Below are positions 1,771 through 6,066 of a stretch of DNA of 64,000 nucleotides, one piece after another. Every line of letters starts with the position of its first letter. The first letter of the stretch is position 1. Under the pieces are notes generated by a model. The model did no database searches and was not told the origin of the DNA. It worked only from the letters and a program-made list of their open reading frames with translations. Made by a program: the position numbers and the translations under genes. The DNA lies in contig CM000155.2 of the NCBI GenBank assembly GCA_000004695.1, positions 3,200,001 to 3,264,000 on the forward strand, written 5' to 3'. Source of the DNA: Dictyostelium discoideum. Its lineage: Eukaryota.

Positions 1771-3360
1771 ATGGCCGGTGATTTAACTCCTTCATTATTT
1801 TTGAAATATGGTTTTGGTGGTGCTTTGGTATGTTTAATATATTATTAAAAAAAAAACACAAAAAAAAAAAAAAAAACACAAAAAAAAAATGTTGAAAATC
1901 TTACACCACACACAAAATGATCGTTTTTTTTTTTTTAAATTAAATTTTATTTCATATAATTAATCAAAAATTATTTAAAACAAAAAAAAAAAAAAAAAAA
2001 AAAAATATCATTTATTTCTTTGAATAAATTAATTTAATTTAAATAATAATAATAATAATAATAAATAGAGTTGTTCAATTACTCACAGTCTTGTAGTCCC
2101 ACTTGATGTCGTTAAGACTCTCCTCCAAACCAACCCAGGTAATTATTAATATAATTGACAATCACAATCACAATCAATATATATTATATAATAAGAATTC
2201 ATAATATTAATAAATAAAAAAAAAAAAAAAAAAAAAAAATAATTAAAAATAAAGGTAAATACACTGGTATGATGAACGGTTTCAGCACCGTCATTAAGGA
2301 ACAAGGTCCATCTGGTTTATTACAAGGTTTAGGACCAACTGCTGTTGGTTATGCCTTACAAGGTTTCTTAAAATTCGGTTTCTATGAAGTCTTCAAAAAG
2401 ACCTACGCTGATGCTGTTGGTGAAAAAGCCGATCAATTCAGAATCCCAATTTGGTTAGCTGCCTCAGCCACTGCTGAAGTTATTGCTGATATTGCTTTAT
2501 GCCCAAATGAAGCCGTTCGTATTCGTTTAGTTGCTGAACCAACTTTCGCTAAATCACCAGTTGAAGCTTTCGGTAAAATCTTCAAACAAGAAGGTGTCCT
2601 CGGTTTCTACAAAGGTCTCCCACCAATTTTATTAAAAGTAAGTAGTTTTGTATTTAATTTATCAATAAATAAATAAATATACATATACTAATATACACTT
2701 TTTATTTTTATTATTATTATTTTTATTATTATTATTATTTAAATTGGTAATTACAGCAAGGTATGTGAAATTTTTAAAAGATAAATTGTAATTTTTTATA
2801 AATATATATGTAGGTATTTTACTAACAACAACAATTATCCCATTTTATCAATTCAAATTTGAACAAATTTAAAATTATAAATAGTCCCATACACTATGGC
2901 TAAAGTAAGTTGGATAAAATATAATATTAGAATATTTAAAATAATAGTAATCATATTAATATTAATAATAATAATAATATTTTTAAAATTATTTTAGTTC
3001 GCTGTTTTCGAATTTACTGCTGAAAACGTTTACAAAGGTTTAGCCGCCAGTGGTAAACCAAAGGAATCATTAACTGATGGTCAAAAACTCTCTGTTTCAT
3101 TAGGTTCAGGTATTGTTGCAGGTATTGTTGCTGCTATTGTCTCTCAACCAGCTGATACCATTTTATCAAAGATCAATCAAGAAAAGACTGATGGTGGTGT
3201 TGTTAAAGCAATCGGTAACATCATGAGACGTTTAGGTGTTCGTGGTTTATTCTTAGGTCTCCCAACCAGATGTTTCATGGTTGGTACTCTTACTGCCGGT
3301 CAATTCTTCATTTATGATGGTATTAAACAAATGTTAGGTCTCACCCCAGCAAAGAAATAA
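1771..3360 (+). CDS. Mitochondrial phosphate carrier (SLC25A3/Mir1-like mitochondrial carrier family), 6 exons including a 4-nt micro-exon
   Basis: Exons approx 1771..1827, 2069..2138, 2255..2637, 2757..2760, 2885..2904, 2998..3360, with GTATGT/GTAATT/GTAAGT donors and AG acceptors. Spliced product: MAGDLTPSLFLKYGFGGAL|SCSITHSLVVPLDVVKTLLQTNPG|KYTGMMNGFSTVIKEQGPSGLLQGLGPTAVGYALQGFLKFGFYEVFK...GFYKGLPPILLK|Q|VPYTMAK|FAVFEFTAENVYKGL...IYDGIKQMLGLTPAKK*. The KQVPYTMAKF segment matches the phosphate-carrier consensus RQIPYTMMKF. Three carrier repeats are present. Confidence 0.8.
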
Positions 3361-3790
3361 ACAATTTTTAAAAAATAAATAATTATTTCCTTTTTTCAGT
3401 ATTAATAATAATAATAATATAATAATAATAATAATAATAATTTATTTGTTTTCTTTTTTTTTTTTTTTTTTTTAATTGTATATTAATTCTAAGTTTTAAT
3501 AGATATATTAGTTTTAATATATCTCCAATAATTACTCCAACTATCGATAAATCCAATTAAAAAAAAAAAAAAAACAAAGATGATACTCCCAACAATCCAT
3601 TTTGTATTATTTTATTATTGGAAATTGATTGATTTTATTTGGTGATGTAAAAATAATTTGAAGTACAATACCTGATAATAATGGTTCATCTGATTCTTCT
3701 TTAATTATTTGTCCTGTGAATGTTAAACATTATTTATTATAGACAAAGAGGTTTTCTGCATTAACAGTAACTGGAATTAGAACGATAGGA

Positions 3791-3866
3791 GTTATCACAA
3801 CAACGAAAGATTTTTACACTAACTTAGATCTAAGTTAGTGTAAAAATCGTTCGTTGTTGTGATAAC
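3791..3866. repeat. 76-bp near-perfect palindrome (38-bp arms, 1 mismatch, centred on AGATCT), followed by a GC-richer tail to about 4030 with CCAATGG/CAGTGGCAA motifs
   Basis: gttatcacaacaacgaaagatttttacactaacttaga|tctaagttagtgtaaaaatcgttcgttgttgtgataac, read directly from the sequence. The local composition is far less AT-rich than the flanks. Confidence 0.85.
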
Positions 3867-4160
3867 CCGATTCACTAGCATGGTTCCAATGGTAGTACTA
3901 GCATGGGTTCAGTGGCAATAACTTGGATCCAATGGCAACTCAAACAAGAATCCCATAACAGCACTAACTTTAATATAATGGCAGCACTGACTAACTCGGA
4001 TCTAAATAGGGTAATACCACTGCTATAAAAGACTAATTAAGTTTATTCAAATGGTTTAATCAAATTTTTTACATTAAATTTTTCTTTTGTTTAATCCATA
4101 TGCTTAGTTTAATTGACTTCCTTCCAAAAAAAAAAAAATAGAATAAACATTCCACCATAT

Positions 4161-6066
4161 TTACCGACCATATTGTAATAGGTCACAGAGGTAGCTAAAT
4201 TCCAACCATAGGAAGATGTGAAAACTTCTTGTTTTGAAACCGGTTAAAGCTTTTGGAGGATGAGAGTTACAGTTATCGATTTCTGCCATAATATAGGTTC
4301 CAGTACTATCAGTATAAGAGTAGTCATCACTTGAAACTGGTGCATAGTAACCAGCTGGTGTAAAGTAAATTTGATAATTAGTTGGTAATAACATTTGAAT
4401 TATTGCAGTTTGGTAAGCTAAAGAAGCTATGGTAGAAATTTTTTGAAAGTCTAATCCATTGATATTGAGTGAGGATGGATTATTGGTTGGTAAGAAACAT
4501 AATGCAAAGGTTTTACTCATCATACCCCAATCTTGTAAAATGGTATTTTTAATTCTTTGAGCATTTGCCATTTCATTTTCATAATTTTCATTTAAATGAT
4601 CATAGAGTTTACTTAATGTAACTTGATAGGTTGATGGGCCTGAATCATTACTTTCAGCATATAATTCACCAAATTGTACTGCTGACTCACTAATGTTTGC
4701 AATTATTGAACCACCAATTGGTATCTCTGAAATAATTGCATAAAAAACACTGGTAATTGCATCGGTGTAATCTCCATTAACAACTTGGTCAGATGACATA
4801 TCAACATTGATTAAATTTGCCAAGTTTGTTAAATTTGTACTACCTTGACTAAATAATTTACTATAAAAACCAGAATAGTTATCAAATACTAAACGGACAT
4901 TGATTGCGTAGGTGAGTTCATTTTTGATTTGATTTTGAACATATGAAAAATCTTCAGTTGAATGAATTGATGATGGACAAGTTGCATTGGTGACATTAAC
5001 ATAGAAAATTTCTAAATTAACATTAATACTTGTATAAAGTGATCTAATGTCATCAGTATAACCATTTGTTGCATCATCACTAAGGTATTGATATGATGCT
5101 AATAAATCACCACTTGTGTAAGCTGGAAATGGTTCTGGTACTTCACTAACAATTTGGTTTAATGAATAGGTTGGATTTGCAATCCATTGGAAATTAATAT
5201 CACTAGCACTACTTGGTTGAGCTAATACACAATTAACAGTTGAATCAACTCCAAGTTCACCAACGAATCCAATACATAAATTTGGATAATATTGATTGAA
5301 TATTTGATTATTTTCGTTGATACCCCATTGTTGCATTAGATCATTTGCTTTGTAAACATTGGTATTTAAATGATAGTTTGTTTTACTACCATCAATTGAT
5401 GGACCAATATCTAATACTAAATTACCATCCAAACGTGATAAAATGTGACCATCGTTTGTCATTTGCCAAATTTGACCTATTGATTTTGCTTGAACTTTAT
5501 TCATTACTACACTAGTATTATATGATGTACTATTATTTAATACACTTAGACCCCAATAATTATTATTGGAATCCAATTGTTTGCTTTGAAAGTAACCCCA
5601 ATTACCAGTTGGAATTGGTGCTCTTCTAAAAGTTGTCCATTTTTGAGTTGCGTTTCCATTTAAAGGTGCAACACAAATATTCAAACTGTCGATATCAAGG
5701 TATTTACCATTACCTTGGTTGAATTTTATTATTTGTAGTATCAATTGTCCAAATTTGAGTTTTTGAATTTGAATTAAGTTGTACTAATTCAACAAAATAA
5801 CCACCTGATGAAACATCTAAAACAAAATTACCACTGGATGTAAAGATATGACCATCATCAGAAAGAAGCCATGTTTGAATTGACTCAGATGCTACACATT
5901 GGAATGTATTACTGGTTGATAAATAATATGGTGTAATATTATTTGAACCTTTGAATAAACTTTTTGCTACGAATGAGTATTTTGGTTTTGAACTTGTACT
6001 TGTACTTTTTAATTGTTTTTCTTCACTTTGATTTGAAGATTTTGAAATATCTTCAATATTTATCAT
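4161..6066 (-). CDS. Ricin-B (beta-trefoil, QxW repeat) lectin-domain protein with a long C-terminal domain. The reading frame is interrupted near 5710-5745, so this may be a frameshifted gene or pseudogene
   Basis: Two overlapping minus-strand ORFs (5710..6066 and 4161..5744). Repeated QxW motifs ([37 protein letters not shown]) and DGHIxxxxGNxVLD repeats typical of ricin-B domains. The overall architecture resembles the Dictyostelium Cup (calcium up-regulated) lectin family; that link is recalled from memory, not verified. Confidence 0.6.

Follow-up and report, generated by a model that had tools for sequence, protein, structure and literature searches.

A probable constitutive 4-nt coding exon in mcfN, a predicted mitochondrial phosphate carrier gene of Dictyostelium discoideum

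The neuronal micro-exons of animals are 3–27 nt long, depend on SRRM4, are alternative and mostly a multiple of three in length, and are tissue-regulated via intronic enhancers. Recursive splice sites, such as those of Drosophila Ubx, are juxtaposed AG/GT "zero-length exons".

In plants, Arabidopsis APC11 contains a constitutive exon of 1 nt, which was verified by cDNA and GFP-fusion assays and for which intron definition with sequential intron removal was proposed as a model (Guo & Liu 2015, PMC4674806). The downstream intron of the 9-nt exon of potato invertase is reported to be removed first (PMC4674806). Among the coding micro-exons of plants (up to 15 nt) is a conserved cluster of 4-nt exons in RECQ3 (Yu et al. 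2022, PMC8831610). We found no discussion of Dictyostelium micro-exons in the literature searched.

In this study, we characterized the splicing of mcfN, a six-exon gene on the + strand at 1771–3360 of the window (the 64-kb stretch of D. discoideum DNA analysed here). From comparative and annotation evidence, we conclude with a probability of roughly 90% that the 4 nt CAAG at 2757–2760 form a genuine coding exon of this gene and are spliced in constitutively. Like the APC11 exon, it is a constitutive coding exon below the size for exon definition, the frame and a conserved protein depend on its inclusion, and it has been mis-annotated; it differs in having 4 nt rather than 1 nt, in belonging to an amoeba rather than a plant, and in being known here from sequence comparison and annotation. 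It shares with the plant micro-exons described above, which are mostly constitutive and often not a multiple of three, a small size, conserved motifs and a tendency to be missed or mis-modelled by pipelines, but it appears young, is confined to the D. discoideum complex and is amoebozoan. Animal neuronal micro-exons are of a similar size class, and CAAG likewise lies in a structured protein region; unlike those alternative, regulated exons, it is frame-essential and therefore presumably constitutive. As at recursive splice sites, the acceptor and the donor are nearly superposed, and upstream splicing would regenerate or expose the downstream 5' splice site for stepwise removal; in contrast to them, 4 nt are kept in the mcfN mRNA, and the introns are of ~120 nt and not tens of kb. 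CAAG was rejected as a recursive splice site, as four needed nucleotides stand between AG and GT; its mechanism may resemble recursion. The kind of object, a constitutive coding micro-exon, is already known, and the added result is a lineage-specific origin together with the uniform failure of automated annotation.

Gene structure and splice paths of mcfN

All five introns of mcfN are of the GT…AG type, with lengths of 93–241 nt and a GC content of 9–16% (Table 1). The window is strongly AT-rich, with GC at 9–16% in introns and spacers versus ~40% in exons. The six-exon join 2637/2757–2760/2885 (slashes mark splice junctions here and below) yields a protein of 298 aa that includes …PPILLKQVPYTMAKFAVFE…. 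The sequence of exon 5 is TCCCATACACTATGGCTAAA, bordered by aaatag and gtaagt, and two consecutive micro-exons, of 4 and 20 nt, are thus found within 150 nt.

Table 1. Features of mcfN, with positions in the window
Feature	Positions	Strand	Description
Exon 1	1771..1827	+	57 nt, ATG…GCT TTG; donor gtatgt
Exon 2	2069..2138	+	70 nt; acceptor aaatag, donor gtaatt
Exon 3	2255..2637	+	383 nt; ends …CCA ATT TTA TTA AAA (Lys170), donor gtaagt, phase 0
Rival cryptic donor GTAGTT	2642..2647	+	chosen in automated models; product K-V-I-PYTMAK
Intron 3a	2638..2756	+	119 nt, GTAAGT…TTACAG, GC 11%
Branch-point-like box of intron 3a, TACTAAT	2686..2692	+	65 nt from 3' splice site
Micro-exon CAAG	2757..2760	+	4 nt; Gln171 (CAA) and first base of Val172
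Intron 3b	2761..2884	+	124 nt, GTATGT…AAATAG, phase 1
Branch-point-like box of intron 3b, TACTAAC	2820..2826	+	59 nt from 3' splice site
Exon 5 (20-nt micro-exon)	2885..2904	+	TC CCA TAC ACT ATG GCT AAA (…V-PYTMAK)
Intron 5	2905..2997	+	93 nt, GTAAGT…TTTTAG, phase 0
Exon 6	2998..3360	+	363 nt, TTC GCT… (FAVFEF…TPAKK); stop 3358–3360

The original prediction, which had ended exon 3 at 2637 in phase 0 and set CAAG between a ttacag acceptor and a GTATGT donor, agrees exactly with the sequence: exon 3 closes with …TTA TTA AAA/gtaagt, and the micro-exon is bounded by a canonical AG acceptor and GT donor (ttacAG/CAAG/GTatgt, 2751–2766). Reading on through CAAG runs into the stop that had been named (CAA GGT ATG TGA), and leaving out CAAG alone while keeping the 20-nt exon breaks the frame as had been argued, with a stop after 20 codons. 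The claim that CAAG is needed for the conserved carrier sequence was also upheld. A single one of the 56 open GT-AG paths gives KQVPYTMAKF; this is the micro-exon path, which has consensus-type sites throughout (donors GTAAGT, GTATGT and GTAAGT; acceptors TTACAG, AAATAG and TTTTAG). Two further paths had not been foreseen: skipping of both CAAG and the 20-nt exon is in frame and gives 290 aa, and the donor GTAGTT at 2642 joined to 2885 restores the frame with K-V-I-PYTMAK.

CA[AG]G occurs only once in 2638–2884. When the intron interior was shuffled with its dinucleotides preserved, AGCAAGGT arose in 8 of 20,000 shuffles (~4e-4), and in 1 of 20,000 when restricted to a GTAWGT donor. AGCAAGGTATGT is unique in the window with one mismatch allowed. 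Hexamer over-representation in the window was tried as a proxy for donor strength and dropped, as the counts were dominated by coding sequence.

Each path has its own spliced-junction strings: TTATTAAAACAAGTCCCATAC, AAACAAGTCCC and TTATTAAAACAAGTCCCATACAC for the micro-exon path; TTATTAAAA/GTAA/TCCCATAC, AAAGTAATCCC and TTATTAAAAGTAATCCCATACAC for the path through donor 2642; TTATTAAAA/TTCGCTG and TTATTAAAATTCGCTGTTTTCG for skipping of both small exons; and TTATTAAAATCCCATACAC for skipping of CAAG alone, which shifts the frame. The string CCATACACTATGGCTAAA, between exons 3 and 6, is incompatible with double skipping. The junction pattern CCAATTTTATTAAAA-N{0,12}-TCCCATACACTATGGC had no match in metagenome and metatranscriptome contigs, and a looser pattern returned two of these contigs, both P. 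violaceum-like (83% protein identity) and with the gene uninterrupted. A 71-aa junction peptide compared with a set of 5.8 billion proteins retrieved no D. discoideum transcript fragments, and QVPYTMAK, VIPYTMAK and GLPPILLK appeared in no text of the literature searched.

Compared with the annotated D. discoideum carrier, the micro-exon product is identical over 298 residues to the AX4 protein mcfN (Q54BF6.2, XP_629073.2, EAL60635.2; DDB0233888). Given that CA[AG]G is single and that only one path leads to KQVPYTMAKF, the curated protein must derive via the CAAG exon, and the micro-exon was therefore already known to the reference annotation; its presence in the curated model is judged from the protein sequence. 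The ".2" versions of the accessions suggest a corrected mcfN model. The N-terminal mcfN peptide aGDLtPSLFLk has been seen by mass spectrometry (PMC8584165) and is the only mcfN peptide in the supplements of that study.

The helix-4 motif and its conservation in dictyostelids

The mcfN product contains three Mito_carr repeats (PF00153, 180.8 bits), and its closest homologues bear the names phosphate carrier, SLC25A3 or MIR1; by sequence, mcfN is predicted to be a mitochondrial phosphate carrier of the SLC25A3/Mir1 type. The helix-4 motif [KR]-Q-[VI]-P-Y-T is present in mcfN and is complete only with the micro-exon. We place Lys170-Gln171, as the [KR]-Q pair of transmembrane helix 4, at the substrate contact point II known from mitochondrial carriers. 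This placement would follow from the three-fold pseudo-symmetry of carriers, and Lys170-Gln171 aligns with its symmetry-related counterpart, R-Q in helix 2 of UCP1. A [KR]-X / R[QHNT] class has been described (PMC10027655).

Because the generic Pfam Mito_carr model does not separate QV from VI (180.8 versus 180.6 bits), we built a family-specific HMM from the 119 homologues that are 250 aa or longer and lie outside the D. discoideum complex. In all 119, the K, Q, P, Y, T and F of L-[LF]-K-Q-[VI]-P-Y-T-M-A-K-F are invariant. The family HMM gave 488.6 bits to the QV product of the micro-exon, 483.4 bits to VI (donor at 2642), 478.2 bits to VSI (donor at 2645) and 448.8 bits to the product lacking both small exons (8-aa deletion). 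K-V-I was found in two of 129 motif-bearing proteins, both of them automated models from the D. discoideum complex.

Outside the complex, AAR-CAR-GTN-CCN is uninterrupted in all six outgroup sequences, namely five dictyostelid orthologues and an intronless D. discoideum paralogue. The orthologues of D. purpureum, P. violaceum, C. fasciculata and T. lacteum carry contiguous …AAR CAA GTT CCA TAC…, T. lacteum being covered by a spliced Logan transcript contig as well; the D. discoideum paralogue has AAG CAA GTA CCT, and A. subglobosum has AAG CAG GTT CCA, in which CAGG still encodes Gln. Since the outgroups carry contiguous Lys-Gln-Val-Pro codons, CAAG corresponds to the bases of the ancestral mRNA at that position. 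The paralogue (P0062) has no intron in the 900 nt that encode its 299 aa, in contrast to the five introns of mcfN.

Within the complex, the island aattaYag/CAAG/gtaYgt is kept in D. firmibasis, D. dimigraforme and D. citrinum. In the four species, 11 of the 12 columns of ag/CAAG/gtaYgt are identical, versus 15–25% identical columns in the intron interiors. The introns around it vary in the sister species from 87 to 210 nt (3a) and from 104 to 158 nt (3b), with indels of up to ~130 nt that include an (ATA)n insertion; at these lengths, as at 119 and 124 nt in D. discoideum, each flanking intron is viable singly and has a candidate branch-site box. Throughout the four species of the complex, intron 3a keeps its box as ACTAAT or ATTAAT and intron 3b as (T)ACTAAC. 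We infer that TACTAAT and TACTAAC are the branch points of introns 3a and 3b, respectively; one TACTAAY box per sub-intron is what is expected of two separate introns and not of a single 247-nt intron. Exon 5 is identical in 18 of 20 columns across the four species, and the differences are synonymous.

Several other features of the locus were noted. Very long poly(T)/poly(A) tracts, ordinary for Dictyostelium, lie at 1500–1740 in the mcfN promoter region and at 1840–2000 in intron 1. A juxtaposed AG/GT (tgtAG/GTat, the "zero-length exon" motif) stands at 2812–2815 in intron 3b, shortly before the TACTAAC box; of the four species of the complex, only D. citrinum lacks it, and it may be due to chance. 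The spacer of ~800 nt 3' of the mcfN stop codon contains a 76-nt palindrome (3791–3866) that is unique in the window; its 38-nt arms are 97% complementary and meet without a loop. The next gene after mcfN in each of the sister species (D. firmibasis, D. dimigraforme, D. citrinum) is an FAA_hydrolase on the minus strand, at a distance of a few hundred nt; the window has other large ORFs 3' of mcfN (3361–6066), namely a minus-strand ORF at 4161–5744 (527 aa) and another at 5710–6066. Relative to the three sister species, this change of neighbourhood suggests a synteny break or an insertion.

Automated gene models and rival readings

Gene finders had been expected to miss an exon of this size, and they did so consistently: the 90% cluster around mcfN contains nine automated models, all from new Dictyostelium assemblies, and the micro-exon is missing from every one. 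Two of them reach K-V-I-PYTMAK via donor 2642 (P0007 from D. discoideum and P0002 from D. firmibasis), four skip both small exons and give 290 aa, and three are truncated at 177–182 aa.

The path of the first two models would dispense with the micro-exon altogether. Exon 3 would be extended by 4 nt (GTAA) to the donor GTAGTT, followed by a 243-nt intron (2642–2884), and the product would read …PPILLK-V-I-PYTMAK… with 298 aa. This path is open and in frame, automated annotation chose it in two species, and its product equals the QV product by generic Pfam score. It nevertheless replaces the Gln that is invariant in 119/119 homologues, at a cost of 5.2 bits in the family HMM, and the curated reference protein has QV, not VI. 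GTAGTT is a weak donor that lies 4 nt downstream of a perfect GTAAGT and competes with it, and it is not conserved, the sister species having GTCGAT, GTTTTA and GTTTAT in its place. The path also leaves the ag/CAAG/gtaYgt island and the TACTAAT box upstream of it unexplained. The D. discoideum assembly DNA underlying P0007 is 100% identical to the window, and K-V-I in that model therefore reflects how the gene was modelled, the sequence being the same. We consider it improbable that mcfN is spliced in this way.

Joining of exon 3 directly to exon 6, as predicted in four models, is in frame and uses a strong GTAAGT donor and a TTTTAG acceptor, yet we give it even less credence. The resulting 290-aa carrier would lack QVPYTMAK, a deletion of eight helix 4 residues, although K, Q, P, Y and T, and F too, are invariant in 119/119 homologues, and it loses 39.8 bits in the family HMM and 17 bits in Pfam. 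Moreover, the exclusively synonymous changes in the 20-nt exon across the four species are not expected of skipped sequence.

An artefact, be it a sequencing or assembly error in 2640–2880, as the original prediction had allowed, or a decaying pseudogene, has nothing in its favour except the a priori rarity of 4-nt exons and is effectively refuted: over 1771–3360 the window matches the independent D. discoideum assembly GCA_054883475.1 at 100% identity, which excludes sequencing error, three other species have the same structure, the exon differences are synonymous only, and the mcfN protein has been detected by mass spectrometry.

Splicing mechanism, origin and significance

For CAAG as a genuine exon, the most likely mechanism is intron-defined, sequential removal of two ordinary introns of ~120 nt, since 4 nt are too few for exon definition and the short introns carry their own signals. 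Each flanking intron would be recognised across itself through its own donor, TACTAAY branch-like box and AG. The acceptor of 3a and the donor of 3b, 4 nt apart, cannot be engaged together, and the two introns must therefore go one after the other. The U1 footprint at the 2761 donor (-3 to +6) overlaps the AG at 2755–2756. Either 3a or 3b could be removed first, with the other following. The first ligation would place the 4 nt in an exon of normal size, so that the second intron would then meet an ordinary splice site (…AAACAAG/GTATGT or …ACAG/CAAGTCCC…). No RNA structure joining the sites was supported, the region folding less stably than its shuffles (z = +2.2). Given that skipping of CAAG alone leads to a premature stop, its inclusion could serve as an unproductive-splicing control on the expression of the phosphate carrier.

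Introns 3a and 3b are present only in the D. discoideum complex, and none of the outgroup orthologues has either of them. Intron 5 (after …MAK) is common to D. purpureum and missing in P. violaceum, C. fasciculata, T. lacteum and A. subglobosum. The distribution of 3a and 3b suggests two gains on the D. discoideum branch, which would be more parsimonious than at least four independent losses. In such a history, an ancestral uninterrupted …AAA CAA GTY CCA… would have been cut twice, 4 nt apart, by the introns of the complex. We thus lean towards a young 4-nt exon that arose by two separate intron gains, 4 nt apart in substrate-contact codons, in a common ancestor of the D. discoideum complex that postdates the split from D. 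purpureum. That split is itself old, ~400 million years by the estimate in PMC3188802. An origin of introns 3a and 3b from a duplication was rejected, as they have no mutual similarity beyond chance (z = -1.0). If two gains did occur, the locus holds a datable pair of intron gains, and CAAG is among the smallest constitutive exons documented outside plants.

For mcfN itself nothing changes, as the curated protein already has the Gln-Val encoded across the micro-exon. The consequence for annotation quality is that all nine automated orthologue models are wrong at this point, the invariant Lys-Gln pair being altered or removed in each; homology-aware modelling of micro-exons would correct them. 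CAAG offers a clean non-plant example of a constitutive exon whose small size precludes exon definition, and ordered, intron-defined splicing in Dictyostelium could conveniently be tested on the natural mcfN locus.
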